The position numbers were made by a program, and so were the translations under genes. Of a stretch of DNA of 64,000 nt, positions 9,601 to 48,241 are shown piece by piece. Numbering within the stretch: position 1 is the stretch's first letter; every line of letters begins with the position of its first letter. The notes under the pieces were generated by a model. It saw only the letters and a list, made by a program, of their open reading frames with translations, made no database searches and was not told the DNA's origin. Origin of the DNA: an uncultured archaeon (GTDB lineage: Archaea > Asgardarchaeota > Thorarchaeia > Thorarchaeales > Thorarchaeaceae); the NCBI GenBank assembly GCA_964631415.1, contig CAZVZC010000004.1:13814-77813 (forward strand), given 5' to 3'.

Positions 9601-11421
9601 CTACAGCCTGATGCCAAGCTCCTCCAGCTTTGCTTTGGACGGAGCACCTGTTCTGTCCCAGTCCCTGAGTCTGTAGTAATCTTCGAGCATTGAGTCCAGT
9701 GGCACGGTTCTCCCCTTTGACAGCCCCTCGCTCAGAGGTTCTGTCAGGAACCGCTTGGGCAGGGTGTCGTCTTTCCTTGATAGTCCGGCCTTGGTGTTGA
9801 AGAGTCTCTCAAGGTTGTAGATTCGCTCACCAATCTTCATCAGACGAGTGATGTTGAGGTCTTCACCTGTCACAGCAGTCGCAAACCTTGAGTAGAAGTC
9901 GAATCCTAGAGCATAGCCTGCGAACTTGCAGACAATGAGACTGTCCTCGATTGCGCTCTGATGTTGTTTCAGCACTAGAAGGTCAGCCTTGCTGCCTGTG
10001 CTGGCACGGGGAATCTTCTTGGGTGCGGCGAAGACCTCCATCGCCACCAAGTAGCCTGTCAGGTGGCAGCCGCCTCTGTTCGAGGTGGCATAGCCCAGTG
10101 CATGGCCAATCGCGCCGCGAGGATCATACGCCGGGAGTTCCATTCCTTTGACATGTACCGCCGCATCAGGCATACCGTGTTTTGCTGCTAGCCGGGCAGA
10201 CCCGGACGCCAGCTCTTCTCCGATGCCCCGTCTGTAAGCAATGTCTTCTATCAAAGGAATCAGGATGTCTTTGTTTCCAAACTGAATCCTATCGTCATTT
10301 AGGGCTCCCTTCTCACGGAGCTCCATTGCACAGCTGATAGTTCCTGCAGTTGAAACAGTGTCCAAGCCGAGAAGGTTGCAGTGATAGTTCGCTTCAGCGA
10401 CAGTCACCAGATCGAATATACCGGTTAATGTCCCAAGCAGCAGGGATTCAAACTCAGGACCCTTACCATTCATTGATTGGGTCTTTGTCATCCGACCACA
10501 ACGAATGGGACAGGCATGACACCCCTCATCCTTCTCGAATATCTGTTCACGGATTGCTTCCCCGCTGAGGTTCTCAGCTTCATGCGAATAGCCCATCTGG
10601 AAGTTCCTGATTCCGAGCATTCCCAGTTCGTTGATCACGTTCAGCAGGCCTGCGGTTCCAAACATGGGGAGAGATGAGTTCGTGATGGGCGCGACCTTCA
10701 ACTTGTCTCTCGCAGATTTCACATACGTGATGAGCAGTTCCGGGTTGTCAATATCCGGCTTCGCCTTCCCGACCTTGATGACGATAGCTTTGAGATTCTT
10801 CGCTCCCATGACGGCTCCTGACCCACCTCGGCCAAAAGCGCGGTGGTTGCCATCGTTCATGATAGACGCGTAGAGGACTCCATTCTCCCCGGCTGGCCCA
10901 ACCATCAGAGAGTGGAACCTGCCAAGGCCTAGAGATTCAAGTCTGTTCTGAGTTTCCAGAGTGTCCAGACCCCAGAGGCCCCCACATGGCACAATCTGGG
11001 GGTTTTCACCCTCTGAGACCAGCACGTAGCCAGGTTCGTCGAGACGCCCGCTCACTATCAGACAGTCATAGCCTGTGCTCTTCAAAGCAGGTCCGACAGA
11101 GCCACCTGTGTTGGAGTAGAGGATCAAGCCCGTCAGTGGGGACTTTGTGACAAGTGAGAAGCGACCACTCGTTGGAACGATTGACCCAGTCAGAGGACCT
11201 GTTGCGAAAACAAGACAGTTGTTTGGAGACAGTGGGTCTGTTCGGGGATTGACCAGAAACGTGAAGAGCTTGACGCCCAGCCCACGACCACCTAAGTAGT
11301 CTGTGAGTGTTTCGGCATCTATTGCGGATTCCTCTGATGATTGGGCCGACAGGTCAACTGACAGCAGCTTGTTGTGCATTCCTTTCATGGTTTCCAGGTT
11401 CCCCGCAACTGGCGCACTCAT
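9601..11421 (-). CDS. aor: tungsten-dependent aldehyde:ferredoxin oxidoreductase; start may be ATG 11388
   Basis: YLGGRGLG, KSPLTG, FGRGGSGAVMGAKNLKAI, CHACPIRC, GLDTVS, KGMELPAYDPR, SNRGGCH, DSLIVCKF. Confidence 0.95.
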   Translation of the reverse strand: MSAPVAGNLETMKGMHNKLLSVDLSAQSSEESAIDAETLTDYLGGRGLGVKLFTFLVNPRTDPLSPNNCLVFATGPLTGSIVPTSGRFSLVTKSPLTGLILYSNTGGSVGPALKSTGYDCLIVSGRLDEPGYVLVSEGENPQIVPCGGLWGLDTLETQNRLESLGLGRFHSLMVGPAGENGVLYASIMNDGNHRAFGRGGSGAVMGAKNLKAIVIKVGKAKPDIDNPELLITYVKSARDKLKVAPITNSSLPMFGTAGLLNVINELGMLGIRNFQMGYSHEAENLSGEAIREQIFEKDEGCHACPIRCGRMTKTQSMNGKGPEFESLLLGTLTGIFDLVTVAEANYHCNLLGLDTVSTAGTISCAMELREKGALNDDRIQFGNKDILIPLIEDIAYRRGIGEELASGSARLAAKHGMPDAAVHVKGMELPAYDPRGAIGHALGYATSNRGGCHLTGYLVAMEVFAAPKKIPRASTGSKADLLVLKQHQSAIEDSLIVCKFAGYALGFDFYSRFATAVTGEDLNITRLMKIGERIYNLERLFNTKAGLSRKDDTLPKRFLTEPLSEGLSKGRTVPLDSMLEDYYRLRDWDRTGAPSKAKLEELGIRL

Positions 11422-16277: not shown

Positions 16278-17021
16278 CTAAAACTCGTGCTTACGGAATC
16301 TCCAGACTGCGAGTTCGCCCAGCACGACCAAGACGACGATGGTTATGATCAGCGGATAGACTGAGAAGTCTGTGCCGTTTGCTATGCCCATCGCCACTGT
16401 GAGCAGACCCCATGGGCCATATGGTCCGATAGTGGGGTTCATTCCAAGGTTGACCCCAAAGAAGATGAAGAATATCGGCAACCACACAACTGATCCGGCC
16501 TTCTCGTAGAATGTTCCCATACATATAGTCAGGAAGAGCAAGAACACCTGCCAAAGAATGACAGGGACAAGACTTGCACAGAACGCCAATATGCTCGGAG
16601 CAGTACCAAACAGAACAGCTAGAAGGAACACTACTGAACCTGGTATCAGGACCATCGAGATGGCAATGTTCAGAGAGTTCGGCAAGAGCTTGGCCAAGAC
16701 AAATGCTGTTCTGGACACGGGCTTTGACAGGACCCACGCAGCAGAACCCGAATCCTTCTCTTCAAGTATCGTTCCTGTTGCGACGACTAGCACTGCAATG
16801 GACGGGAATATGAATGCCATGATGTAGAAAATCATCAAGCCTCCTTCCGCGTTTTGGAGACCTATAGACGAGAACAGGCCGAGCGCTCCAGTCCACATGA
16901 GTGCCTGCTGCCACCATGCTGATGTCCCGAACCAAGCCTTGAGCTCCTTACGCACTAGGTTCGAGAGTCCCATTCTCCAGCCAGTTTCAATGACAGGCTC
17001 GAATGCTTCACTGTGCGACAT
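16278..17021 (-). CDS. ABC-2 type transporter permease
   Basis: 6 TM; EEKDSGSAAWVLSKPVSRTAFVLAK motif; overlaps the ATPase gene. Confidence 0.9.
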   Translation of the reverse strand: MSHSEAFEPVIETGWRMGLSNLVRKELKAWFGTSAWWQQALMWTGALGLFSSIGLQNAEGGLMIFYIMAFIFPSIAVLVVATGTILEEKDSGSAAWVLSKPVSRTAFVLAKLLPNSLNIAISMVLIPGSVVFLLAVLFGTAPSILAFCASLVPVILWQVFLLFLTICMGTFYEKAGSVVWLPIFFIFFGVNLGMNPTIGPYGPWGLLTVAMGIANGTDFSVYPLIITIVVLVVLGELAVWRFRKHEF

Positions 17022-17955
17022 TGTTGCTGTCCTCCACCATCTTCATGAAAATCTCTTCAAGCTCATACTGCTTCAAGCCGAAATCCACGACGTCTACGGT
17101 GTCATCTGCCATTACTGTCCTCAGGAGCTTCTTCCTAGCCATCGAATCATCGCTCACACTGACGACCCATTGCGTTTTGTCCTTGGCCTTCTTCTCGGTA
17201 ATGCCTGTCACCCAAGGTTCCTTGGAGAGCCGTGCGTATGCCTTCTGGGGGTTTCCTTCCAGTGTGAGTGTATAGGCCACACCTTCGCTACCGGCAAGAA
17301 GCTGACCAATCGGTGCCTGCGCTATCATCCGGCCTTTGTTCAAGATTGCCACAGTGTCGCTGACTCGCTGCACATCATCCAGGATATGAGTGCTGTAGAA
17401 TATGGTCGATTCAGAACGTAACCCCTCCATGATCTTGAGAACGTCCTCTCTTCCTTCAGGATCAAGGCCCGCGGCAGGCTCGTCAAGGATCAGAAGCTCT
17501 GGATAGTTAATCTGGGCCTGAGCGATTCCCAGCCGCTGCATCTCTCCACCAGAGAAACCCTCAATCAGCCGGTCCGACTTGTCCTCGAGCTCCACAACCG
17601 AAAGAAGCTGCTCTATTCTCTCCTCGATTTTGTCACGTGGTCCTTTGAAGTAGAAACGCGCAGCAAAGCGCATGGTTTCTCTTGCCGTCATCTCTTTGTA
17701 GAACTTAGGATGCTGAGCAAGGTACCCCACTCCTCTTCTGACCTCGTTACTGTTCTGAACAATGTCATAGCCGAGCACGGTTCCACCGCCAGTTGTCGGC
17801 TTCGTGAGACCCACCAGTAGTTTGATTGTGGTGGTCTTTCCAGCCCCATTGGGTCCAAGGAAAGCAAAGATCGAATTCCTTGGAACTCTCAGATTGAGCG
17901 AACTCAATGCAGCAACGTCCCCGTATGTCTTGCCGAGCTCCTGAGTGCTTATCAC
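17008..17955 (-). CDS. ABC transporter ATP-binding subunit
   Basis: Walker A GPNGAGKTT, signature FSGGEMQR, Walker B LILDEP, STH loop. Confidence 0.95.
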   Translation of the reverse strand: MISTQELGKTYGDVAALSSLNLRVPRNSIFAFLGPNGAGKTTTIKLLVGLTKPTTGGGTVLGYDIVQNSNEVRRGVGYLAQHPKFYKEMTARETMRFAARFYFKGPRDKIEERIEQLLSVVELEDKSDRLIEGFSGGEMQRLGIAQAQINYPELLILDEPAAGLDPEGREDVLKIMEGLRSESTIFYSTHILDDVQRVSDTVAILNKGRMIAQAPIGQLLAGSEGVAYTLTLEGNPQKAYARLSKEPWVTGITEKKAKDKTQWVVSVSDDSMARKKLLRTVMADDTVDVVDFGLKQYELEEIFMKMVEDSNNVAQ

Positions 17956-20939: not shown

Positions 20940-21704
20940 CTAGCTAAGGTTCGCCGATATGGCACCTGTCGTAGCCTGCGCCACGATTGTGAGCGTGGTT
21001 TCGGCGGTATGGTAGTCGTCGGTTTCGTAGTGACTCGTTGTTATCTTGTTCCATCCGACCTGAGTCACGGTAACTGGGCCGGCCGTGGTTGAGGCCTCGA
21101 AGCTCCCACCCACTCCTACTGGGAGGTCTAGGTTCACAGTGATGGCTCCGGCAGAGGCTTCAAGGTCAAAGATAGAGTCGCCTAGAACCTGCACGTCGTC
21201 ACCCATGATGACAGAGATGGCGCCGGCTGTCGCGGTCAGAAACATGTTACCAATGTGCGCTCCATGATCTAGTGTGATAGATACCGCGCCCGCGGACGTG
21301 ATCACGTCAATCGTGTAGTTGGCACCTGTGCCCAGGGTGAGATTCACCCCTGCAGCTGTATAGTTCAAACGAATCACGTTTGAAGCCAAGATGACGACAG
21401 GCGCCCCGTGTGCTTCGAGTGTAGAGTTCTGAACCTCGACAGTCATCCTGTACAAGAGGGTCGTGTTCTCCTCGAACTTGATGACAACTGCACCAGCGCC
21501 CAAGTTCATATCCAGAGTCACTGTACCTGTTGTGTTGCCGACCTCCTGTTCAAATGGAAAGACTGTCTTAGCAGTGTTCCAGCCCGGGAACCACCACCAA
21601 CCAGTGGATCCAAAGTAGGTCAAAGCGCCGACTGCGAGGGCACCTCCGGTTATGACAGCGATTATGCATGCAACCATTCCCTTGTTTCTTCGATATTCAC
21701 TCAT
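20940..21704 (-). CDS. membrane-anchored exported protein with repeated beta motifs (DUF4097/adhesin-like)
   Basis: N-terminal TM, then repeats of the type TAAGVNLTL / SAGAVSITL / TAGAISVIM / SAGAITVNL / TAGPVTVT / TTGAISANL. Confidence 0.7.
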   Translation of the reverse strand: MSEYRRNKGMVACIIAVITGGALAVGALTYFGSTGWWWFPGWNTAKTVFPFEQEVGNTTGTVTLDMNLGAGAVVIKFEENTTLLYRMTVEVQNSTLEAHGAPVVILASNVIRLNYTAAGVNLTLGTGANYTIDVITSAGAVSITLDHGAHIGNMFLTATAGAISVIMGDDVQVLGDSIFDLEASAGAITVNLDLPVGVGGSFEASTTAGPVTVTQVGWNKITTSHYETDDYHTAETTLTIVAQATTGAISANLS

Positions 21705-22341
21705 TCTTCATTCCACCCGTTCGATGAGACCGGAGGAAGTCGTGCCACTTCTCTCGCAGGTCTCGATACTGCGGATCTTCTTCCAAAGCAAACCGACGCA
21801 TGATCCGCGACACGTCTCCTCTGACCGATGGCGGAAGTTTGTTGTAGCTCGCCGCATCTATTACTTGAGTCTTTGAGCTGACAGCATTCTCGCGCTCGAT
21901 CAGATTCCTCAGCAACGCTGTTGCCTGCTCCGCCTCAGACTCTGGTATCTCCATGCCATAGACCGACAGGCTTGATATCATGGACTTGAAGCGGTTTCTT
22001 GCGAAACGAGCGATGCCTCCGTTAGCCTGTATCATCTCACTGATGCCCAAGCGAAACTCTCTGGCGGTCGCTCGGTAGTATCGCTGCACTATTCCAGTAG
22101 AAGTGAGCTGAGTGCGCTCCTGAACCACAAGACCGGCTTTCTTCAGCGCTTCAATGTGATGCAGTATGGTTCCAGGGTTCTTGCCAAGAGCGTCAGCCAG
22201 CTGCTTGACTGTCATTGAGCCATTCACGAGGTACTTGAATACAATATCAGATCGGACTGGCTCAAGAAGGACCCTGATGACTTTGGAGTCCGTCACCACC
22301 TCAAGGTCTTTCATGGGCTCTACTCGCGTCGGCTCTGTCAA
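21697..22341 (-). CDS. ArsR/HTH_20 winged-helix transcriptional regulator
   Basis: RVLLEPVRSDIV...MTVKQLADALGKNPGTILHHIEALKKAGLV...QRYYRATA. Confidence 0.9.
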   Translation of the reverse strand: MTEPTRVEPMKDLEVVTDSKVIRVLLEPVRSDIVFKYLVNGSMTVKQLADALGKNPGTILHHIEALKKAGLVVQERTQLTSTGIVQRYYRATAREFRLGISEMIQANGGIARFARNRFKSMISSLSVYGMEIPESEAEQATALLRNLIERENAVSSKTQVIDAASYNKLPPSVRGDVSRIMRRFALEEDPQYRDLREKWHDFLRSHRTGGMKNE

Positions 22342-22344
22342 GTT

Positions 22345-23217
22345 CTACACACCTCCGACGAGTCTCACGTCAGGACCTTCATCCTCTGTCGTTTCTGTCG
22401 CGTTGGGGTTGTCTGTCAGGATCAAGTAGACCCTGGTCAGTCCAATCGTCATAGCTGGCAGACCTAGAAACACAAGGGCCAGACCGGCAATCGCTCCTAT
22501 GGGAATCAGCACAACCGTCAAGGCAGACAAGAGGATGAACACAGCGATGTAGGACAACCAAGTGCCGAACACTCGGTCGAAGTACTGCCGGCTGAGTCGT
22601 ACAGACTGCTTGACGGCACCCAGAACAGAGAGCCCGTCTATTATCCCAGGAAAGAGCATTGATAGCATTCCAGTCGTCACTACGAGCCAGACAACTGCGA
22701 ACGCTGCCACTGCCGCCATTGGCAATCCTAACATCCAGCTTCCCGTGACAGTAAAGGCCCAGATACTCATGAGGGCGATTGGCATCAAGCTCACCAGAAA
22801 AAGGACTACACCTCCTCCGGCAAGAGACAGGAACTTCTTTCTGTACCAGACGAACACGCCCTCGGCAGTAGTGCCATCACTCTCGACTATCTCGCGAGCC
22901 ATACCGAACAAGGCACCAAGGGCCACGAGGAATGGACCAAGTAGAGGAATCGCCAGAAACATGATCAAACTGAACAGTTCGGCGCCTTGGAGTGCTGACC
23001 AGTTCTGACCAAGAGAAAAGAAGAACTGCATCATTGGTTCCATCCCCCATGCGAGGATAACAGGAATCATGATGGCGGCTGCTACGATGACCATCAGAAT
23101 GCCTGCGACTATCAAGACACCAATCATTGCCAAGACATAAGAGATGACGTTCTTAGAAGCGAACCTGAAACTGATTCTCAGATCCTGCAGAAGAGTTTCA
23201 AAGCTTGAGTTTTTCAT
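22345..23217 (-). CDS. multi-pass membrane protein (paralog 2)
   Basis: Shares VVALGALFGMARE/VVVGSIYGMSND, AGGG/AGAG, MLFPGIIDG/MVLPAVVNG, FDRVFG and GPDV/GPDI motifs with the upstream gene. Confidence 0.8.
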   Translation of the reverse strand: MKNSSFETLLQDLRISFRFASKNVISYVLAMIGVLIVAGILMVIVAAAIMIPVILAWGMEPMMQFFFSLGQNWSALQGAELFSLIMFLAIPLLGPFLVALGALFGMAREIVESDGTTAEGVFVWYRKKFLSLAGGGVVLFLVSLMPIALMSIWAFTVTGSWMLGLPMAAVAAFAVVWLVVTTGMLSMLFPGIIDGLSVLGAVKQSVRLSRQYFDRVFGTWLSYIAVFILLSALTVVLIPIGAIAGLALVFLGLPAMTIGLTRVYLILTDNPNATETTEDEGPDVRLVGGV

Positions 23218-23251
23218 TTTTCAGCCATCCAGTAGAGGTAGTTTGAGAACA

Positions 23252-23274
23252 CTCCCCTCTTGTTTCGAGGGGAG
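23252..23274. other. 8-bp hairpin CTCCCCTC-N7-GAGGGGAG between the tandem paralogs
   Basis: Perfect inverted repeat in the 79-nt intergenic gap. Confidence 0.45.
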
Positions 23275-23296
23275 CAATCTCTCATCTTGCGTGCGC

Positions 23297-24205
23297 TCAT
23301 ACAATGGGTATGTCGGGGCCTTGCTTCGGCGCGACCTTTCCATCTGTGATCTCATGGTAGACCTTAGCAAATGCGATGACTACCATTGGGAACAGCAGGA
23401 GTATCCACAGAAGACCTGCGATAACAGTCCAAGCCGCGAGTGCACCAATCACGGGCATGAACATTGACTCAGGTCCCATCATTGTCCAGTTGACCGTGAG
23501 CCCCCAGACCATCGCGGGCGCGAACATTGCTACAGCCAAGAGGACTATGGCGGTCCACAGGCCGAAGACACGATCGAAGTGCTTGACGGCCAGTCTGAAG
23601 GACTCACTCACCGCCGCCTGCACTCCTTTTCCATTGACAACAGCTGGGAGGACCATCGAAGTCAGACCGACAGTGACGAAGGTCCAGACGAAGGAGAAAG
23701 CAGTCAGAGCCTGTGCAGCCAGACCTGTAATTGTGTACCCGAGCAAGTACCAAGCGGTGCCCCAGACGACTACCTGGGGGACAATGACTATGATTGTAAG
23801 TATAGCACCCGCACCTGCGAAGGCGAAGAACTTGTGCCAGAGATAAGAGAACGCAGCCTCGGCTTTGGTTTCACCTATCATGACCAAGTCGTTGCTCATC
23901 CCATAGATTGAGCCAACAACCACCAGAAACAGGGACACAACTGGAATCATGACCAGAATGCCTAGTCCTCCTACTAGCATAGGACTGTGCCCGGCCCATG
24001 CCGACATCATTAGACCCATGTTGTTCCAGAACAGACCGCTGGTAGCGAGTGCTAGGAGCATGATGGGCATTGCAATGATGCCAAACAGTATCGCAATAAC
24101 AAAGACCATGCCAAGGTTAGCAAGTAAGTAGCTCAGTACGCTCTTCCTTGCGAGTCCGAGGCTTGTCTTGAGATCGTTGAAGACTGTGTGAAAGTCTGTA
24201 GACAT
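23297..24205 (-). CDS. multi-pass membrane protein (paralog 1); start ATG 24205 (MSTDFH)
   Basis: GGTGA RBS upstream of 24205; the longer track start would overlap the promoter; paralogous to 22345..23217. Confidence 0.8.
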   Translation of the reverse strand: MSTDFHTVFNDLKTSLGLARKSVLSYLLANLGMVFVIAILFGIIAMPIMLLALATSGLFWNNMGLMMSAWAGHSPMLVGGLGILVMIPVVSLFLVVVGSIYGMSNDLVMIGETKAEAAFSYLWHKFFAFAGAGAILTIIVIVPQVVVWGTAWYLLGYTITGLAAQALTAFSFVWTFVTVGLTSMVLPAVVNGKGVQAAVSESFRLAVKHFDRVFGLWTAIVLLAVAMFAPAMVWGLTVNWTMMGPESMFMPVIGALAAWTVIAGLLWILLLFPMVVIAFAKVYHEITDGKVAPKQGPDIPIV

Positions 24206-24408: not shown

Positions 24409-25023
24409 TCATACCCGTCTGGCATGCGGAATCCGCGACACCAGTGACTGCCAGACCCAGCTGAACAATGGTGTCAGCAAGAACACTGTGGGGACACCGA
24501 CTGTCAACAGTGGAAGTAGTACGAATCCCAGCGCCACTAGGTCAGCGTAGACTTCCACGGTGAGGCCGACCACAACCGTGACAAGCACTGTAAAGACGAA
24601 GCCAATTACAGACATGATCGACAGTTTGGCTAGTGAGCGACCATTTCCGAAGTCATACCGAACAAGGCCCACGATGAAGCCCATCAATCCGAAGGCCAAA
24701 GGATTCAACGAAACAGTCACGACAGTGCCGAAGAACAGAAGCCCATAGAGCAGCGCACCCAGATATCCGGTCAGCAATCCTGCCAAAGGCCCCCTAATGG
24801 CCCCGACCGTTGAGATGACTGCGAGAGCCGGCCAAAGTCCGAGTTTGAAGAGGTCAACCATTACGTACGGCTCAGGTGGGATCGACAGGACGACGAAGAA
24901 CGTCACGCCTGCGGCCGCAGATGCGATTGTCCAGAGTATGGCATTGCGGTCCTGTATGTAGAAGAGTTCAGAAACTGTTCGCCTCTCTTTCTGATTGACA
25001 TGAGCGTCTGCCTCTTGAGCCAT
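24409..25023 (-). CDS. ECF transporter S-component (substrate unknown)
   Basis: 6 TM; GAIRGPLAGLLTGYLG motif typical of S components; GGTGA RBS. Confidence 0.75.
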   Translation of the reverse strand: MAQEADAHVNQKERRTVSELFYIQDRNAILWTIASAAAGVTFFVVLSIPPEPYVMVDLFKLGLWPALAVISTVGAIRGPLAGLLTGYLGALLYGLLFFGTVVTVSLNPLAFGLMGFIVGLVRYDFGNGRSLAKLSIMSVIGFVFTVLVTVVVGLTVEVYADLVALGFVLLPLLTVGVPTVFLLTPLFSWVWQSLVSRIPHARRV

Positions 25024-25026
25024 GCT

Positions 25027-26682
25027 TCACCCTCCTGCAACAATGACCAGATGATATGTGCCCGGGTTCAGCGTCAACACGTAGTCAGATCCAGATGCAG
25101 TGAGCTGCCCCAAGGAGCGACCTCCCGAGTATGCACTGGGCACAGACCCGAAATTGCTGAAGGTCAGGGTTGCCGTCTGGTCTATCCGTACATTCAATAC
25201 GAAGCCCTCCTTGTCAGGGTCCCACTGAGCTTGGTACACCCACATTCTGTCATCATCTGCCTGAGAGATGTATGGATAGCCCCAGAACTCAGCAGGCCGT
25301 GGGTCACCTAGGTCCTTGATTGTCACTGGTACTGTGGCCCAGAGCCATCCGTAGGCCATACTCGACTGGAGGAACGGCTCTATGGCCATTGTATCCCAGT
25401 GCATTGCACGGCCATCAGCCGACCAGACCTTGTTGTATGGGGACCACATGAAGTTGACAATCCGATCTCTGGTGATCAAATCTCCTCTCTGTTGAGCAAG
25501 CGCCACAGCATAGAGGTTGGACAACATGTCGAACTCATCAAACTTGGTAGGGCAGTTGTACGTATCAATCATGGAAAGCTGGTCGGCAGAGATCTCCTTG
25601 GAGTAGTGCTCAAGAAACGTGGAGTAGTCTTGAGCAACTATGCTCTCGTTGGTGTGCTCTATGAATAACAGTGACCATGCTACACCATATCCCTGCACAA
25701 TGGGGCGTCCGTCTCGAACGAAGGGGTCTAGCATCTTGCCAGGAAACTGCTGTACCGGGCCACCGCCAGTCTGATTGAAGCCCATTGGGCGTTGCACGAA
25801 GTACTCGTCAGTATAGAGACCATAGTCGTCCGTCATGTTTGCCTCAATGAATCCCAGACCATAGTCCCACATTCCGCTCTCCATATAGCTCGTGTTGTGA
25901 ATATCGTCATACAGCTCTGTGAAGAACAGCGGGATGACATTGCACTGAACCCATACGGCATACGGCTGACATGGAATGAGCCCGCACTCCCATATCCCGC
26001 TCTCTCGTGCATTGCCCAGTCCATCAGTTGTCAGCGAGTTGTTCCAGTCGCGCATGTACCAGTCGTACTCGCTGAAGAACTCGCCCGTATTGAAGCTCCG
26101 CTCATAGAGGAGCTCCATCAATGCATAGTGACCAGTCCACATTATGTTAGCTGGGCCTCTGAAACCCCCTGTGAAGATGTCATCTCCGTCAGGATGTATC
26201 GGGTCTGGGTAGTAGTACTTGGTCCAGTTCGAGTAGCCGATGACAGGACGAATCCACTCCATGGACTCGATCGAGGTTTCGCCATACTCCTCCTCGGTGG
26301 TGTTCATCTTCTTGATGAGGTCGTATGCCATGTCCGAGTAGTAGTCAGTCCTGTAACCCGAGGTGACCTCGAACAGCCTTGCGATTGAGTAGGTCATGAA
26401 TGCCAGTTGGTAGTGGACCAAATAGTAGACATCAGAACCAACGTTCCATCCGTCCCACAAACCGTATGGCTGCTCGACAAGTCCGCGTATGTAGTTGTAC
26501 GCTGCGATTTGCTCATGAGTCAGTGACGGGTAGTCTGCCAGATTGAAGACTATACCATTGACTACTTGTATACTCGTCAGTGTTGCCGGGCCGGGCAGGT
26601 TACCGAAGGTCAGTCCTGCAAGAGCAATGGTGATGACGAGGGTGGTGATGAGGAACTTGCTGGCTTTGGGCGATTGACTCAT
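25027..26682 (-). CDS. secreted or membrane-anchored linalool dehydratase/isomerase (Ldi/LinD)-like protein with C-terminal beta domain
   Basis: N-terminal hydrophobic signal; HYQLAFMTY, ANIMWTGHYALM, IPCQPYAVWVQCNV...LYDDIHNTSY, GYGVAWSL align with recalled Ldi motifs KYSIAFYAY, ENIMYKGHLNLM, VCEPDNYFVQCNS...VYDRLHGTDY, AYTTAWTL. Confidence 0.8.
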   Translation of the reverse strand: MSQSPKASKFLITTLVITIALAGLTFGNLPGPATLTSIQVVNGIVFNLADYPSLTHEQIAAYNYIRGLVEQPYGLWDGWNVGSDVYYLVHYQLAFMTYSIARLFEVTSGYRTDYYSDMAYDLIKKMNTTEEEYGETSIESMEWIRPVIGYSNWTKYYYPDPIHPDGDDIFTGGFRGPANIMWTGHYALMELLYERSFNTGEFFSEYDWYMRDWNNSLTTDGLGNARESGIWECGLIPCQPYAVWVQCNVIPLFFTELYDDIHNTSYMESGMWDYGLGFIEANMTDDYGLYTDEYFVQRPMGFNQTGGGPVQQFPGKMLDPFVRDGRPIVQGYGVAWSLLFIEHTNESIVAQDYSTFLEHYSKEISADQLSMIDTYNCPTKFDEFDMLSNLYAVALAQQRGDLITRDRIVNFMWSPYNKVWSADGRAMHWDTMAIEPFLQSSMAYGWLWATVPVTIKDLGDPRPAEFWGYPYISQADDDRMWVYQAQWDPDKEGFVLNVRIDQTATLTFSNFGSVPSAYSGGRSLGQLTASGSDYVLTLNPGTYHLVIVAGG

Positions 26683-26920
26683 GTGAGCACCTCAAACGGA
26701 TTGCGGACAGGTTTCGGAACGCCCGGTGGTTCGTGAGTTATATACCTTCCAACCTCAACGATTATCACGTCGGCAGTTGACGTAGCGCCAACTGCTATTC
26801 ATGAAACCGTCTTTGAAGGGAGGAACCTGCATGGGGCGTGAGATATTGACTGGTATGATCCCCGTGCGAATGCCCAAGCAAAGAGAGGATTGCTCGACGC
26901 GTTTGTGCTCAATCCCTTGA

Positions 26921-28186
26921 CTAGTACTCTGGCTCTACGTTTGCTCTGACACTCGGAAACAACAGCCTGACGATGGGTTTCATTGACGCCCTGCAGGAAA
27001 CATCTGGCTCATGGAGCTGCAATTCATCGAGGGTTTCGTAGCCCATAATCAGACGGGTCAATGCATCAGGAGAGAATGCCGCATCATAATGTGCCGTACC
27101 GGCATCCTTGCCTTGAGTGACCTTGTGGAAAGCCCCATTCTCGAATTGGAGCGTGTAGAGGTCCCTGTAACTACTGATGATCAGGTTGCCTGTGAAGTTG
27201 TCATACTCAGTCCCCTTCAAGCGCTTTGTCAAGACAGATCCTATCGTTTCAAGAAAAGATGCGACTGAAGGAATCTTCACATACCACGCATAGACTCTCG
27301 GGAAGTGGTTGCGTGCAATCGCCATGACGACCTCTCTGACTGCTTCTTGGTCCGGAGGCACAACTCTGATACAGACTCCTCCAAGCTTAGTCGCCATGGC
27401 CTCCACGTGGCGCAATACACTTGCAGTGTGCTGTGGATTCTCTAGACAGAGCTCTGCAAGATTCAGCACCCCTTCGTCGCAGCGCAACGAGAATGAGCCA
27501 ACTATCGCACCTGCTTCTCTCACAGTGAAGAAGTTGTATGCGTAGCAGGTGAGCGAAACATCCGCATAATCGAGGTAGTCGTACTCGATAGACCTGAACT
27601 TTCGATAGAATGTGTGTTTCGGAGCGTGTTTCGCTCTGAATCTGAGGAACTGGTCGAGGCTCTTCTTGTTCACTCTCACGACGCTGACAGGCTCTGATTC
27701 TGCATCCTTGAGCTTGGGAATCAGCTCCGAAGGGACTATTAGGCCACCACCTAGAGATGCCGCATATTCGTACCCAAACATCCTGTAGAAGTATGGAATC
27801 CCTGCGATGACCCAGATCAAGACGCCCCGTTGCAGTGCTCGTTCTTCGTAGGCCTCGTTGAGCTTTCGGATGAGTCCTCTATTCCTGTACTCCTTTCGAG
27901 TGCCCACCATCTCCATTTGTGCCGCGGGAATCTCGGCTCCATCGATCACCCATGTCACCGGGAGCAGCATGATATGGGAAACCACGGTTCCGCTGTTCGA
28001 ATCGACTACGATGAAGCTGTCTTCTAGTTTGAAGTCCGCCATCCTTCTGTATATCGATTCTGTGAGCCCGACGACCCCTTCGTCATGGACGATAAGATTA
28101 TGCTCCAATATAGCAGAAAGATCCTCCATTGTGGCTGTCTTCAGAATCAGCCCATCACCGAGTTCCCTGTTCACTTTCCTATCCAC
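26921..28186 (-). CDS. Eis-like GNAT acetyltransferase with C-terminal SCP2-like domain; start likely GTG 28186
   Basis: QMEMVGTRKEYRNRGLIRKL, GIPYFYRMFGYEYA, C-terminal YTLQFENG...ALTRLIMGY...LFP. Confidence 0.85.
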   Translation of the reverse strand: MDRKVNRELGDGLILKTATMEDLSAILEHNLIVHDEGVVGLTESIYRRMADFKLEDSFIVVDSNSGTVVSHIMLLPVTWVIDGAEIPAAQMEMVGTRKEYRNRGLIRKLNEAYEERALQRGVLIWVIAGIPYFYRMFGYEYAASLGGGLIVPSELIPKLKDAESEPVSVVRVNKKSLDQFLRFRAKHAPKHTFYRKFRSIEYDYLDYADVSLTCYAYNFFTVREAGAIVGSFSLRCDEGVLNLAELCLENPQHTASVLRHVEAMATKLGGVCIRVVPPDQEAVREVVMAIARNHFPRVYAWYVKIPSVASFLETIGSVLTKRLKGTEYDNFTGNLIISSYRDLYTLQFENGAFHKVTQGKDAGTAHYDAAFSPDALTRLIMGYETLDELQLHEPDVSCRASMKPIVRLLFPSVRANVEPEY

Positions 28187-28389
28187 AACCTCTGGGCAAT
28201 ACTGTAGATTCGATGCCTTGGGCACAGAAAGCCTGCCGGAAGCGCACCAATGGCCTGTGACAACCAAGCCAGCCCCTTTATAGTTCACCTTCAATCGATT
28301 CTCGGCCGTTGCAACGGGAAGACGCTTCTTGGACATCGTTAATAAGAGGCGGTTTGGCCGTAAGACTACAGGTCGGGGCGTGCTCACGA

Positions 28390-29745
28390 ATGCTGCCGCT
28401 ACGCAAAAAAATCGGTTACGCCATGGGTCGGTTTCCGTCCTTTCTGATGACGTTCATCACGCTCACGAGTTTCTACATCTACGGCCATAGGTTTGAGCTG
28501 AACTGGCTGCTGACTGGCATATCTCTGTCTGCCTCGTATGTCGTGATTGGCCTGACCCACTGGTTCACAGGATACTACAGTGATAGTTTGAAGACACGAT
28601 GGGGGCGTCGACGCCCTTTTGTCGTGCTGGGAACACCGGCTCTGATCGTTTCCGGCTTCCTGCTCTTCGTACCCAACTGGTTCCTTGACATCGCCGACCC
28701 AGCCACTGAAACTCTGGTGTTTGTTTACTACCTTACGACTCTGTGTTTGTTCAAGTTCTCCTATGCATTTCTGATGACGGCGTACCAGGCTTGGTTGCCA
28801 GAGATTACCGATGAGAACGAGAGGCCGCTGGTGTCGAGCATGCAGAACACCGTCAACTGGTTTGCTGACTCGAGTGGTGCCGTGTTAGGAGTGATGTCAG
28901 CACTGCTCTTCTTGCAGGTGCCACCATACACCCTGACCAGTGATGGTGTCATGATTCTTGTGGCGTTCTGCCTTGTGACACTGGTGTTCAGTCTCCCCTC
29001 TATTCTCTTCATCAGGGAGAAACCAGACATCATAATCCCGGCAAGGAAATTGAGAGAGGAAACGAGTGTCGTCCTGCACAACCGTACCTATGTGGGTTGG
29101 ATACTTGCCGTAGGCTTTCTGTCCTTCACCTTCTCGGCATTCACAAGCCAGATCGTGGGGTTCCTAGAGCAGGTACTGAACCTCACAACAATCGAGTCGC
29201 TCATTCCTGCTGCACTCACCATGCTTGGATCCGTTTTCGTCTTCCTGTACCTCTGGATTACCGCGATACGTCGAATCGGCAAGCGAAAGTCGCTCATAGC
29301 AGGGCTCATTCTCCTTGCAGTCATGCTCCCTCTCACACCATTCTTGCGCGATATAGGCGGCTCAATTGGCTATACAGTCGTCGCCATAATGTTCTTTGTA
29401 CCCTTCGGAGCCGGCATGGCAATCTACTATCTCATGAGTTACATCGTGCCCGCAGACATCGCTCAAGTCGACGAGATTGTTTCTGGCGAGAGCCGTTCTG
29501 GAATGTACACAGGCTTCCTTGGCGTGCCTCTGAACATGTTCCAAGCAGCCTCAGCGCTAGTCCTCGGGTGGCTCATGGACTACTCGGAAGTGATGACGGG
29601 CGGCGAGCTATGGGGTCTGATGTGGTGGGGCCCGGTCTTCGCACCCACGCTACTGATCGCCGCATTGGTGCTTCACTTTATTGACATCGACCCCGACTTC
29701 AACTCGTTGAGGACACAAACAGAAACAAGTGAGAGCGAAAGGTAG
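28390..29745 (+). CDS. MFS transporter, GPH/MelB (MFS_2) type; start ATG 28390
   Basis: GYYSDSLKTRWGRRRPF, YQAWLPEIT, PADIAQVDEIVSGESRSGMYTG; about 12 TM. Confidence 0.9.
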   Translation: MLPLRKKIGYAMGRFPSFLMTFITLTSFYIYGHRFELNWLLTGISLSASYVVIGLTHWFTGYYSDSLKTRWGRRRPFVVLGTPALIVSGFLLFVPNWFLDIADPATETLVFVYYLTTLCLFKFSYAFLMTAYQAWLPEITDENERPLVSSMQNTVNWFADSSGAVLGVMSALLFLQVPPYTLTSDGVMILVAFCLVTLVFSLPSILFIREKPDIIIPARKLREETSVVLHNRTYVGWILAVGFLSFTFSAFTSQIVGFLEQVLNLTTIESLIPAALTMLGSVFVFLYLWITAIRRIGKRKSLIAGLILLAVMLPLTPFLRDIGGSIGYTVVAIMFFVPFGAGMAIYYLMSYIVPADIAQVDEIVSGESRSGMYTGFLGVPLNMFQAASALVLGWLMDYSEVMTGGELWGLMWWGPVFAPTLLIAALVLHFIDIDPDFNSLRTQTETSESER

Positions 29746-44434: not shown

Positions 44435-46084
44435 TCACTTTACCTCGCGAAGCTCACGTCGCAGTATCTTCCCCACGGCACTCTTCGGCAGTGAGGAAAC
44501 AAAAGAGATGATGCGAGGGTACTTGTAGGCAGCCATATGCTCCTTGGCCCACTCCTTGATCTCATCCTCAGTGACCTTTCCTTCGTACTCAGGCTTCAGT
44601 CTGATGAATGCCTTGATTGTTTCACCTGCCGCCGGGTCTGGAATGCCGATGACTCCAACTTCAGCGACTGCGGGATGTCTGTAGAGGAGATCCTCCACCT
44701 CCGCTGGGAATACCGAGTACGCCTTGTACTTGATGAGGTCTTTCTTCCTGTCGCCGATGTACACATAGCCGTCTGCGTCAAAGCGGCCGATGTCGCCAGT
44801 GTGCATCCAACCCCCTTTCAGCGTCTCATCGGACTCCTTCTCCTTGTGCCAGTAGCCAGCCATCACCTGTGGGCCTCGAATCAGGATTTCACCCCATTCA
44901 CCAATTGCCATCTCCTTGGCATCATTCGTAGTGTCCACTATCTTGATGTCAGTGTTGAAGATTGGGAGGCCCACGCTTCCTGGCTTCAAGACACCCTCCG
45001 GAATAAGAGTCTGTATTGGCGAGGTTTCTGTCATTCCGTATCCTTCGACTATGTATATTCCTGTGAGCCGCTGAAACTGCTCCAGAATCTCAACAGGGAG
45101 AGGCGCAGCGCCGGAGAAAGCATGCTTCAGGGACTGCAGCGTTTCTTTCTTGAGGTCAGGCCGCCCTAGCATTGAAACATACAGTGTTGGCACTCCAACG
45201 AGTACCGTCGCTCCATACTTCGGGATTACGTGAAGGACCTCCTTTATGTCGGGTCTTGGGATCATTATGATACTGGCCGCTATGTACGAGGCCAGTACAA
45301 GCACACATGAAAGGCCAAATGCGTGAAAGAACGGAAGGACTCCCACAAAGCACTCCTTGCCCTCATTGACCTTGAACCACCTACGACCCGCCTCTGCGTT
45401 GAACATCAAGTTGCGGTGCGTCAGCATCGCGCCCTTGGGCATACCCGTGGTCCCTCCTGTGTATAGCAGAGTGGCAACATCATCTGCGCCAAGAATGTTC
45501 TCAGGGGGTGTCACGGGCTGGTCAGACATCAAATCCTGAAAAAGACGGATCTCAGGTCCAACCGGTAACGTTGGGTGCTCGATCTTGCCAACAAGCTTGC
45601 CCAAAACAGCCTTGGCTTTCGGCAGATATTCACCTGTCCTCGTATAGACTACTGTCTGAACTTCTGTGCCCTTTCTCCCTTTCTCAGCAACCTCATGGAA
45701 CATGTCCAGAGCCACAAGAATCTTGGCTCCAGTGTTCTCAAGTTGATGGTGAAGCTCGAGTTCCTTGAGCAGTGGATTGACTGGTGAAATCATTGCCCCT
45801 GCTTTGAAAGCGCCGTAGAAAGCAATAGGAAACTGCGGCAGGTTGGGAACCATGATTGCTACTCTATCGCCCTTCTCGATGCCCAAGCCCAATAGAGCAT
45901 GAGCGAACTGATTACTCATCTCATCGATCTGTCTGTAGTTTATCGTCTTGCCCATGATGTAGAAAGCGGGATGACTGGGAAACCGCTTGGCAGTAGTCAT
46001 GAAAGTTTCATGAATTGTTACGTTGGGAACCTCGATATCATGTGGCAAGCCCTTCGGCCAGCTGTTCTGCCAGAACCTCTCCAT
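44435..46084 (-). CDS. fadD: long-chain fatty acyl-CoA ligase (AMP-binding); start ATG 46084
   Basis: YTGGTTGMPKG, VEGYGMTETSP, GWMHTGD, DRKKDLIK, KSAVGKILRR. Confidence 0.92.
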   Translation of the reverse strand: MERFWQNSWPKGLPHDIEVPNVTIHETFMTTAKRFPSHPAFYIMGKTINYRQIDEMSNQFAHALLGLGIEKGDRVAIMVPNLPQFPIAFYGAFKAGAMISPVNPLLKELELHHQLENTGAKILVALDMFHEVAEKGRKGTEVQTVVYTRTGEYLPKAKAVLGKLVGKIEHPTLPVGPEIRLFQDLMSDQPVTPPENILGADDVATLLYTGGTTGMPKGAMLTHRNLMFNAEAGRRWFKVNEGKECFVGVLPFFHAFGLSCVLVLASYIAASIIMIPRPDIKEVLHVIPKYGATVLVGVPTLYVSMLGRPDLKKETLQSLKHAFSGAAPLPVEILEQFQRLTGIYIVEGYGMTETSPIQTLIPEGVLKPGSVGLPIFNTDIKIVDTTNDAKEMAIGEWGEILIRGPQVMAGYWHKEKESDETLKGGWMHTGDIGRFDADGYVYIGDRKKDLIKYKAYSVFPAEVEDLLYRHPAVAEVGVIGIPDPAAGETIKAFIRLKPEYEGKVTEDEIKEWAKEHMAAYKYPRIISFVSSLPKSAVGKILRRELREVK

Positions 46085-46253
46085 TTTGCACACGTCCGGG
46101 ATTAGCTAGATGAAACTATACTAACCTGCAGACCCGGGATATAACAGCATTGCCCAATCAAGTGAAACAAAGGCATGTTGACCTCCAGACAAAAACGATT
46201 TGTGCCAGCAATACTATGCACCTGATTACTGAAACGCTCTTGGAGAGGACTAC

Positions 46254-48239: not shown

Positions 48240-48241
48240 GA

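Follow-up and report, generated by a model that had tools for sequence, protein, structure and literature searches.

The locus described here raises the question of what an Asgard archaeon does with a relative of linalool dehydratase/isomerase (Ldi) encoded directly beside a small membrane protein that resembles the S component of an ECF transporter. The window, a stretch of 64,000 nucleotides from a Thorarchaeota genome, contains both genes as ORFs on the minus strand, 3 nt apart:

25027..26682, minus strand: ORF of the Ldi-family protein, 551 aa, ATG start, stop codon counted
24409..25023, minus strand: ORF of the membrane protein with predicted S-component fold, 204 aa, ATG start, stop codon counted, six predicted TM helices

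The gene junction reads GGAGGGTGA-AGC-ATG. The Ldi-like ORF ends with TGA at 25029-25027, and after 3 nt the ATG of the partner gene follows at 25023-25021, so the sequence confirms the spacing reported in an earlier note on this DNA. A spacer of only 3 nt suggests that the two genes are translationally coupled. Three short elements were also read from the sequence:

26738..26744, minus strand: TATATAA, archaeal TATA-box-like element about 59 nt 5' of the Ldi-like start codon, with a putative promoter function
26688..26693, minus strand: GAGGTG, Shine-Dalgarno-like, 5 nt 5' of the ATG at 26682
25031..25035, minus strand: GGAGG, Shine-Dalgarno-like RBS of the partner gene, within the last codons of the Ldi-like ORF

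The 551-aa protein had been proposed as a relative of Ldi, and Pfam, Foldseek and hhalign agree on this. The Pfam family PF18566 (Ldi) matched residues 178-298 with 44.1 bits, above its cut-off of 26.1 bits (E 2.5e-11), and it was carried by 120/120 homologues among the matches listed. The protein had 188 homologues, all of them from Asgard archaea. When PDB sequences were searched with HMMER, the significant matches were Ldi chains only (E 1e-3 to 2.6e-2); three Nef chains with E-values of 0.28-0.83 were regarded as noise. With the AF2 model (pLDDT 88.4) as query, the best 27 Foldseek matches were all Ldi, with E-values of 1e-12 to 4e-11 and TM (target) of 0.70-0.79, and the best non-Ldi fold followed at E 8.7e-5. 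Comparison with the Ldi-cluster representative by hhalign gave 98.3% probability over residues 57-433, and the identity to Ldi was about 17-22%. The Pfam score, the PDB sequence matches and the Foldseek ranking together indicate that the resemblance to Ldi is not due to chance; sequence and model place the 551-aa protein among the (alpha/alpha)6-barrel proteins of the Ldi family. Ldi/LinD of Castellaniella defragrans (PDB 5G1U, 5HLR, 5I3T; PF18566) was by far the best match in both structure and sequence. It is a periplasmic, cofactor-free, thiol-dependent enzyme (PMC6600392, PMC6013536). The known relatives named in reviews are Ldi and Lis alone (PMC6013536, PMC6600392), and, in agreement with the earlier note, no characterised archaeal member of the family was found in the literature.

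Residue conservation was counted across 163 relatives of the 551-aa protein. Ldi-type catalysis takes a homopentamer, or at least a dimer, with the active site at a subunit interface, where Asp39' and Tyr45' are contributed by the neighbouring subunit; Met125 and His129 have a catalytic role (cf. PDB mutant entry 6THM), and Tyr66, Tyr240 and Trp244 line the barrel and take part in the active site. The catalytic Cys pair C171/C180 is essential and must be reduced (PMC6600392). The corresponding segments of the window protein were located as follows:

26128..26148, minus strand: NIMWTGH motif, residues 179-185, aligned by HMMER with NIMYKGH of Ldi
25939..25971, minus strand: C238-Q239-P240...V245-Q-C247-N248, aligned by HMMER with CEP...VQCN of Ldi
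25675..25689, minus strand: Y332...W336, aligned by HMMER and hhalign with Y240 and W244 of Ldi, both present in 163/163 relatives

In the HMMER alignment M181 corresponds to Ldi M125 and H185 to H129. The N, M and H of NIMxxGH were invariant in 162-163/163 relatives, M181 and H185 being present in 162/163 with an X as the sole exception. C238 and C247, which HMMER and hhalign both placed on C171 and C180, were found in 163/163 relatives and were the only Cys residues invariant across the Asgard family. Y91, the equivalent of Tyr66, was present in 161/163. Counting P240 as well, seven residues (M181, H185, C238, P240, C247, Y332 and W336) were invariant in 162-163/163, and the motifs NIMYxGH and CEPx6C recur throughout the superfamily, the cluster that represents Ldi included. 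The alignments support the earlier observation that the catalytic Met/His and both Cys are kept, and show that the residues needed for catalysis inside the Ldi barrel (Met, His, two thiols, Tyr and Trp) are retained. No cofactor-binding domain was detected in the 551-aa protein. The residues that Ldi borrows from its neighbouring subunit were poorly conserved among the 163 relatives: the Asp39' position was D in 65, N in 53 and R in 13 (Arg66 in the window), and Tyr45' fell on Y73 by HMMER and on a gap by hhalign. The capping disulfide C48-C101 is essential in Ldi (PMC6600392); no Cys was found at the aligned positions of the 551-aa protein.

The first Cys is followed by a CAG codon, and Gln239 takes the place of Ldi Glu172, as had been noted before. 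This substitution is limited to a small clade. Position 239 was E in 148/163 and Q in 15/163 relatives, with CEP as the consensus, as in Ldi, and all 15 Q239 sequences formed one group, a small clade of paralogs that includes the window copy; 8 of them also carried R66. With two acidic positions changed (Glu to Gln and Asp39' to Arg), the window copy may differ in substrate or reaction scope. The joint change could also mean that the copies of the Q239, R66 clade are catalytically impaired paralogs that serve as binding or regulatory subunits, the active enzyme being an E-type paralog elsewhere in the genome, and genomes with the Q type do hold E-type copies as well (isolates CSMAG_3034 and A3_metabat1). 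However, every other catalytic position is intact, promoter-like and RBS signals still stand before the gene, which also has its own co-diverged partner, and none of the papers and tool results consulted gives Ldi Glu172 a catalytic role. We consider an impaired paralog highly improbable.

Outside the barrel, two further segments of the 551-aa protein bear on its location and extent:

26599..26658, minus strand: N-terminal hydrophobic helix, residues 9-28, predicted to be a signal anchor whose N-terminus is on the inside
25030..25275, minus strand: C-terminal beta-sandwich, residues ~470-551, with AF2 strands at 471-549 (pLDDT >90)

The alignment to Ldi had been described as running along the whole length of the protein. 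This holds for the barrel, residues ~57-433, which is the extent of the match, and fails for residues ~470-551, which form an extra beta-sandwich outside both the HMMER and the hhalign matches. The protein had likewise been called secreted. An outward-facing position is predicted here too, but the protein appears to be tethered: K6 and K9 precede helix 9-28, and a conserved GNLPxP follows the helix with no obvious cleavage site, so that the protein is better read as membrane-anchored than secreted. Seven N-x-S/T sequons were counted against 2.8 +/- 1.6 expected; the N127 sequon was kept in 161/163 relatives and the N214 sequon in 120/163. From the Lys residues before the TM helix and from the enrichment and conservation of sequons, the barrel is predicted, and only predicted, to be extracytoplasmic.

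The Asgard protein thus shares with Ldi the (alpha/alpha)6 barrel, the NIMxxGH and CxP...VQCN motifs, a (predicted) extracytoplasmic location, equivalents of Tyr66, Tyr240 and Trp244 (161-163/163) and the lack of a detectable cofactor-binding domain. Unlike Ldi, which has a cleaved Sec signal, it has a TM-helix tether, adds a C-terminal beta-sandwich of ~85 residues and larger loop insertions, carries conserved N-glycosylation sequons, and lacks the C48-C101 disulfide. Its equivalent of Asp39' is variable and that of Glu172 is Gln in the window clade; its gene has an obligate S-fold partner, and its host is an archaeon. In Lis of Thauera linaloolentis 47Lol, an Ldi-like domain is fused to four N-terminal TM helices in a 644-aa chain; this enzyme is reductant-dependent, has ~20% identity to Ldi, and its catalytic domain was predicted to be cytosolic by its authors (PMC4791888). 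The membrane tie of Lis shows that the Ldi family works at membranes on lipophilic substrates. As in Lis, the Ldi-like domain of the Asgard protein would be physically bound to the membrane, here by one TM helix and with a separate six-TM partner instead of four fused TM helices. Lis-like multi-TM relatives were found elsewhere in the superfamily (P0187, P0237 and P0245). The closest non-Asgard relatives in sequence were bacterial Ldi-domain proteins of 500-600 aa, some with MYXO-CTERM, to which the Thor profile gave 75-100 bits versus 49 bits for the Ldi cluster. These proteins share NIMYxGH, mostly CEPx6C and usually an N-terminal signal or TM segment; their C-terminal regions are different, none is characterised, and beside three of these non-Asgard genes no S-fold neighbour was present.

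In ECF vitamin transporters, the membrane subunit that binds the substrate is called the S component. Its usual cargo is a water-soluble vitamin or a metal rather than a lipid, and it depends on an EcfAA'T module. The 204-aa protein of the window had been identified as such a component. It scored 26.1 bits with PF07155, just below the cut-off of 26.7, and this family was matched by 29/32 of its relatives at E<=0.01 (best 1.4e-8). NCBIfam gave weak matches to the RibU and FolT models only, RibU being far below its cut-off. When the AF2 model (pLDDT 75) was submitted to Foldseek, the best 18 matches were all ECF S components (RibU, ThiT, FolT and PanT), with TM of 0.41-0.67 and probability of 0.75-1.0, but with E-values of 0.035 or weaker. 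The identification thus stood at the level of fold and narrowly missed the Pfam threshold; by its model the partner is a six-helix protein of ECF S-component fold. Like RibU, ThiT, FolT and PanT (PF07155), it has six TM helices, ~200 aa and both termini predicted inside. Unlike them it belongs to an Asgard-only family, for which the profile search returned 115 tight relatives with no outgroup and no named subfamily, and its scores lie far below any equivalog cut-off. Its context also differs from the usual one, since it is always encoded directly after the gene of a (predicted) extracellular enzyme and has no EcfA/EcfT in the neighbourhood. AxxxA is the helix-1 docking motif of S components, known from the ThiT literature; the window partner has A34xxxA38, but the motif is absent from the family consensus WTLLYxxxGxxxF. 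The partner profile found nothing meaningful among PDB sequences. Kinship with the membrane domain of Lis was rejected, as the S-fold HMM gave E>1 against the multi-TM Ldi-like relatives. No covariation was seen between the extracellular Asp/Gly of the partner (window position 94) and enzyme positions 66 and 239.

An S-component fold beside an outward-facing barrel also permits a reading with a non-isoprenoid substrate, in which the barrel is a glycan-active or other polar-substrate enzyme, or a binding protein, that releases or captures a water-soluble micronutrient for import by the S component. Known S components carry vitamins, and RibU and FolT were the sole weak NCBIfam matches of the partner; an extracellular (alpha/alpha)6 barrel with a beta-sandwich and invariant aromatic and acidic residues is moreover a common glycoside-hydrolase layout, and the weaker Foldseek matches included GH105, GH76, GH127 and sugar epimerases. 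However, GH105, GH76 and GH127 appeared only at E >=2e-4 with TM of 0.26-0.58 versus 0.70-0.79 for Ldi, so that the Foldseek check suggested in the earlier note favoured Ldi by 8 orders of magnitude over every glycoside hydrolase. There was no GH Pfam match, and the strictly invariant residues are exactly the thiol/His/Met set of Ldi. On the Foldseek and Pfam results, a glycoside-hydrolase identity was rejected. A gene for a GPH-type MFS sugar transporter does lie nearby (28309-29745), but it is not conserved beside the pair. We regard a polar substrate as improbable.

The adjacency of the two genes is not unique to the window genome, a point on which the earlier note had asked for a comparison of synteny. 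Counting loci with downstream DNA, the pair was adjacent in 45/45 GTDB loci and also in a close relative (L049), in Helarchaeota (L051) and in Hodarchaeales (L054), that is, in every checkable locus, ~50, from Thor-, Hod- and Helarchaeota. The partner HMM reached 1e-30 on the Hod protein and 1e-23 on the Hel protein. The intergenic gap ranged from -14 to +13 nt in 39 related pairs. The distance matrices of enzyme and partner were correlated (r=0.59), a value reached by 0/2000 Mantel permutations. The pair was present in every Thorarchaeota locus retrieved, with several paralogous pairs per genome, and tandem duplicates included both genes. The pair is a conserved Asgard-archaeal operon, in which both genes duplicate and diverge together.

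By analogy with Ldi and Lis, we propose that the pair forms a cell-surface two-protein unit, consisting of a thiol (de)hydratase/isomerase for an isoprenoid-type substrate and a dedicated membrane partner; we give this proposal about an even chance. The barrel, N-glycosylated and facing outward, would sit on the membrane and use cofactor-free thiol acid/base chemistry, as in Ldi and Lis. It would add or remove water, or catalyse a 1,3-hydroxyl shift, and its substrate would be a hydrophobic allylic alcohol or alkene, with an isoprenoid as the most plausible candidate. The S-fold partner would bind the lipophilic substrate or product within the plane of the membrane and would then either exchange this ligand with the enzyme, in either direction, or carry it across the membrane. 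We infer the isoprenoid or terpenoid substrate from the known enzymes, and likewise infer any direction of transport by the partner.

The gene neighbourhood was compared with two possible sources of such a substrate. The first, which builds on the pathway of the earlier note, is exogenous terpenoid detritus (phytol, plant terpenes or archaeal lipid debris), which would be hydrated or isomerised outside, taken up by a true ECF transporter and oxidised towards beta-oxidation genes about 18 kb away. In bacteria, the anaerobic catabolism of monoterpenes does begin with Ldi and Lis (PMC6013536, PMC4791888). The window also encodes an acyl-CoA synthetase, a fused hydroxyacyl-CoA dehydrogenase/enoyl-CoA hydratase, a thiolase and an aldehyde:ferredoxin oxidoreductase; in Helarchaeota L051 two Zn alcohol dehydrogenases and AFOR lie upstream of the pair, and several paralogous pairs per genome would fit a diversification of substrates. 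The location given for the beta-oxidation genes was correct (44435-49426, 17.7-22.7 kb from the pair), but the link to the pair found no support in synteny. About 18 genes on both strands lie in between, the beta-oxidation trio was absent from the gene clusters found in at least 5 of 48 Thor loci, and the conserved clusters that flank the pair in Thor loci included no alcohol or aldehyde dehydrogenase. The window, for its part, has none of the genes that are conserved beside the pair elsewhere. ECF-mediated uptake was unsupported as well: the 64-kb window and the ~50 loci showed no EcfA/EcfT among their examined or annotated genes, and the only ABC genes seen in the window, considered as energising genes (16278-17955), are of ABC-2 type. 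The catabolism of detritus by this route appears unlikely.

The alternative source is the cell's own isoprenoids. The pair would then remodel a membrane lipid, polyprenol or quinone in the outer leaflet, or salvage free isoprenoid alcohols to be re-phosphorylated for lipid synthesis. The presence of a membrane-tethered pair in all the Thorarchaeota loci retrieved fits such a role, and 20/47 pairs were located just upstream of an operon of c8 and archaeal isopentenyl phosphate kinase (IPK). The IPK scored 160.6 bits on NF040647, and the gaps from c8 to IPK were 14-33 nt. c8 is a multi-TM protein with an invariant GGDGxADxIGRKxGG motif and a faint resemblance to CTP_transf_1, the Pfam model being matched by only 4/16 members at E>=1e-3; it had no NCBIfam match and no PDB match. 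Against this role, the pair and c8-IPK are probably separate transcripts, because the directly adjacent cases are spaced by 93-162 nt (one locus overlaps by 4 nt) and elsewhere a Fur/peroxiredoxin insert separates them. The housekeeping neighbours Trm5, PIMT and RibK were as well conserved as c8-IPK, so its proximity may be plain synteny, and the window copy does not adjoin c8-IPK genes. We consider a role in the turnover of the cell's own isoprenoids doubtful.

In a bolder form, the proposed two-protein unit would couple an enzyme to an S component and dispense with the classical ECF module. Here the outward-facing Ldi-type thiol isomerase/hydratase would dock on the S-fold protein and process membrane-dissolved isoprenoid alcohols, for example by interconversion of tertiary and primary allylic forms, leading to uptake and re-phosphorylation, perhaps by the c8-IPK operon. 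We put this forward as a long shot; if true, it would be an isoprenoid salvage route for Asgard lipid synthesis.

In biocatalysis, Ldi is valued for the cofactor-free hydration of unactivated alkenes and for the production of dienes. The Ldi family would be widened by a large conserved archaeal clade that combines the complete thiol/His/Met set with a new architecture, and this clade would offer anaerobe-derived variants, possibly for longer-chain substrates. An S-component-fold protein genetically locked to a putative extracellular enzyme is an unusual arrangement, which could reveal a new handling of lipophilic molecules at the single archaeal membrane. Among the central questions about the archaeal relatives of eukaryotes are their membrane lipids and the way in which they acquire nutrients, and a core surface module common to Thor-, Hod- and Helarchaeota provides a concrete, expressible target.

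The genes downstream of the pair in the window, for two membrane proteins and an ArsR (21697-24204), were considered as members of the unit and left out, because their conservation does not extend beyond the nearest relatives and they possess a TATA-like element of their own. In Hodarchaeales L054, one acyl-CoA dehydrogenase gene was observed downstream of the pair.

Both open reading frames of the gene pair, and the 3-nt separation that the earlier note had given for them, were confirmed in the sequence. The first encodes a 551-aa protein resembling the linalool dehydratase/isomerase (Ldi, or LinD) of Castellaniella defragrans, the second a 204-aa partner with an S-component-like fold, and the junction reads GGAGGGTGA-AGC-ATG, with 3 nt between the first stop and the second start. 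The features of the pair were as follows.

25027-26682, minus strand, Ldi-like ORF of 551 aa (ORF call)
24409-25023, minus strand, S-fold partner ORF of 204 aa (ORF call)
26744-26738, TATATAA element upstream of the 551-aa gene
5 nt before the ATG of the 551-aa gene, GAGGTG site
Within the 3' end of the 551-aa ORF, GGAGG ribosome-binding site (read from the sequence)

Since the 204-aa gene is followed by a 204-nt spacer carrying a separate CTTTATAAG element ahead of the next ORF, the two genes look like a bicistronic unit. Relatedness is closest to Thorarchaeota metagenome-assembled genomes; the best matches were metagenome proteins at 96% and 92% identity and a protein of isolate OWC5 at 75%. 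On these grounds the window comes from a Thorarchaeote, a member of the Asgard archaea.

The 551-aa protein belongs to the Ldi family, as the earlier note had proposed. It scored 44.1 bits against the Pfam Ldi model PF18566 (cut-off 26.1), and when phmmer was run against all PDB sequences the significant matches were Ldi/LinD chains only, in three collinear segments. When the family profile was compared by hhalign with P0198, a 50%-cluster representative approximately 71% identical to Ldi segments, residues 57-433 aligned with 55-364 at 98.3% probability (E 2e-14). An AlphaFold2 model built with 30 homologues as input (pLDDT 88.4, pTM 0.89) showed an N-terminal helix (9-28), an alpha/alpha barrel and an all-beta C-terminal domain (approximately 470-551). 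The possibility that Foldseek would place this barrel in some other (alpha/alpha)6 family was not borne out, because the first 27 PDB matches were all Ldi chains (E 1e-12 to 4e-11; TM 0.70-0.79 normalised to Ldi) and other folds appeared only at E of about 1e-4 and weaker, with TM up to 0.58: the SSV19 tail protein, then GH105, GH76, GH127 and sugar epimerases.

Residue equivalences for the catalytic set were taken from the HMMER and hhalign alignments. M181 and H185 match M125 and H129 of Ldi, C238 and C247 to C171 and C180, and Y332, W336 and Y91 to Y240, W244 and Y66. This set within the barrel is conserved: M181, H185, C238, P240, C247, Y332 and W336 were invariant in 163 full-length relatives and Y91 was present in 161 of them. 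In Ldi both cysteines are essential and need the reduced state (PMC6600392); by homology, the C238/C247 pair would sit in the pocket. The earlier note was right that Met, His and both Cys are kept and that Gln (codon CAG) follows the first Cys in the window, but the Gln is not a family trait. Glu occupies this position in 148/163 relatives, and the 15 Gln sequences all form a subclade of the window copy, so that Ldi is matched even more closely by the family consensus, IPCEPY..VQCN, than by the window copy. Other parts of the Ldi site differ. The capping disulfide C48-C101, essential in Ldi, has no counterpart in the Asgard enzyme. The position of the Asp lent to the Ldi site by a neighbouring subunit is variable (D in 65, N in 53 and R in 13 members; Arg66 in the window), and the borrowed Tyr maps ambiguously with HMMER and hhalign.

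Two lysines (Lys6 and Lys9) precede a hydrophobic helix of about 20 residues, and a conserved GNLPxP comes after it. As inspection of this N-terminus revealed no obvious signal-peptidase site, it most likely serves as a signal anchor that leaves the barrel outside the cell. The ectodomain holds seven N-x-S/T sequons, compared with 2.8 +/- 1.6 in shuffled sequences; that at N127 is conserved in 161/163 relatives and that at N214 in 120/163. Such excess and conservation would fit an exposed protein that is N-glycosylated in the archaeal manner.

When 1.84 billion cluster representatives were searched with the profile, only 126 clusters matched. Most of the full-length clusters carry NIMYxGH and CEPx6C, most have an N-terminal signal or TM segment, and in a few the N-terminus holds 3-4 TM helices, as in Lis, the linalool isomerase of Thauera linaloolentis 47Lol. 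Outside Asgard, the nearest relatives are bacterial proteins of 500-600 aa that are uncharacterised and in some cases carry MYXO-CTERM; they are nearer to the Asgard enzyme than Ldi is.

The S-component assignment of the 204-aa protein was borne out by the predicted structure; its own score against Pfam PF07155 (ECF riboflavin-type S component) was 26.1 bits, marginally under the 26.7 cut-off. Among its relatives, 29/32 matched PF07155 and 30/32 matched the RibU NCBIfam model weakly. The AlphaFold2 model (pLDDT 75) has six TM helices, and the first 18 Foldseek matches were all S components (RibU, ThiT, FolT, PanT; TM 0.41-0.67, E at least 0.035). Charged residues at the N-terminus, at the R77 turn, in the very well conserved YDFxNGRSLAKLS loop and at the C-terminus are consistent with a protein whose two ends both lie inside. 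A single-sequence search recovered 85 relatives and a 32-member profile 115, all tight and nearly all Asgard; judged from these searches, the partner is a closed family and is orthologous to none of the known vitamin S components. Neither EcfA nor EcfT turned up among the genes inspected in the window and the fetched loci.

The adjacency of the two genes is not unique to the genome of the window. Scanning a single genome for each GTDB species yielded 48 loci, every one Asgard, and the S-fold gene lay directly downstream of the Ldi-like gene in all 45 loci having downstream DNA, with a gap of -14 to +13 nt in the 39 complete pairs. Distances of the two proteins were correlated (r=0.59; none of 2000 Mantel permutations as high), and the nearest neighbour was identical for both in 21/40 cases. 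Tandem duplicated pairs, at L006 (2100-8006) and L013 (5537-10256), with a further copy beginning in L002 (8001-10718), have diverged in enzyme and partner gene alike, and several genomes hold 2-3 diverged pairs that include both Glu- and Gln-type enzymes. Divergent Ldi-like genes in L051 (Helarchaeota) and L054 (Hodarchaeales) are followed 10-12 nt downstream by a PF07155 protein, which the Thor partner HMM matched at 1e-23 and 1e-30, respectively. The S-fold neighbour was absent beside the three non-Asgard Ldi-like genes checked. The pair is therefore strictly coupled genetically across three Asgard lineages. A 204-aa metagenome protein, P0174, fuses Ldi-like residues (approximately 256-297) in frame to S-fold residues 43-201 and is probably the product of a deletion or misassembly.

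The domain calls themselves are not novel, as NCBI entries for some members already bear the names 'linalool dehydratase/isomerase domain-containing protein' and 'ECF transporter S component'. Our literature search found no paper tying linalool dehydratase to archaea or Asgard, and the conserved pairing, architecture and lineage distribution appear undescribed so far. The earlier note's observation holds, and its interpretation is supported in part. We infer that the enzyme faces outward; on the model of Ldi and Lis (PMC6013536, PMC4791888), it may use its thiols for acid/base chemistry on a substrate of allylic isoprenoid type, and the partner would serve in binding, hand-over or transport. 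The pathway may be one of catabolic uptake or one that handles the cell's own lipids.

Downstream of about 40% of Thor pairs lies an operon of c8, the gene of an uncharacterised multi-TM protein, followed 14-33 nt later by archaeal isopentenyl phosphate kinase (IPK; 160.6 bits on NF040647). Where directly adjacent, c8 follows the pair by 93-162 nt, with a 4-nt overlap at one locus; elsewhere Fur/peroxiredoxin genes intervene. Housekeeping genes beside the pair are as well conserved as c8-IPK, and we take the proximity as a hint of isoprenoid metabolism that falls short of proof. The c8-IPK arrangement was noted in L040 (6454-8100 region), L006 (8145-9804) and 15 other Thor loci. The c8 protein (approximately 269 aa) has an invariant GGDGxADxIGRKxGG and resembles CTP_transf_1 only faintly; it may act with IPK as a prenol or polyprenol kinase. 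In about 10 Thor loci, among them L020, L023 and L024, an HTH_10 regulator (HVO_A0563_N + HTH_10, approximately 241 aa) lies directly upstream of the pair, is transcribed divergently from it and is a candidate for its local regulator.

The copy in the window, a paralog, stands in another context, and none of the conserved neighbours was found in the window. Its own neighbours, a GNAT/SCP2 protein, an MFS transporter, two unknown membrane proteins and an ArsR regulator, form a set common only to the closest relatives. These and two more distant features are:

26921-28387, minus strand, GNAT acetyltransferase of 488 aa with SCP2-like C-terminus (Eis-like), directly upstream of the pair
28309-29745, plus strand, divergent GPH-type MFS transporter, overlapping the GNAT start region in the longest-ORF call
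21697-24204, minus strand, two paralogous multi-TM proteins (302 and 290 aa; 27-31% mutual identity), then an ArsR/HTH_5 regulator
44435-49426, beta-oxidation genes: acyl-CoA synthetase, fused 3-hydroxyacyl-CoA dehydrogenase/enoyl-CoA hydratase, thiolase
9601-11421, tungsten-type aldehyde:ferredoxin oxidoreductase (AFOR)

Because the GNAT and MFS counterparts in the close relative L049 are called at 457 and 468 aa, the true starts of both are probably internal. The 302- and 290-aa proteins had no Pfam or NCBIfam match; their group has a separate TATA-like element and is conserved in the closest relatives only (L001, L049). The beta-oxidation genes to which the earlier note had drawn attention are real, but no synteny ties them to the pair. 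In the Helarchaeota locus (L051:1070-7962), an AP_endonuc_2 TIM-barrel gene lies before the pair with a gap of 38 nt, along with two alcohol dehydrogenases of the Zn type and an AFOR, a layout that, at this single locus, resembles ldi-geoA-geoB of Castellaniella.
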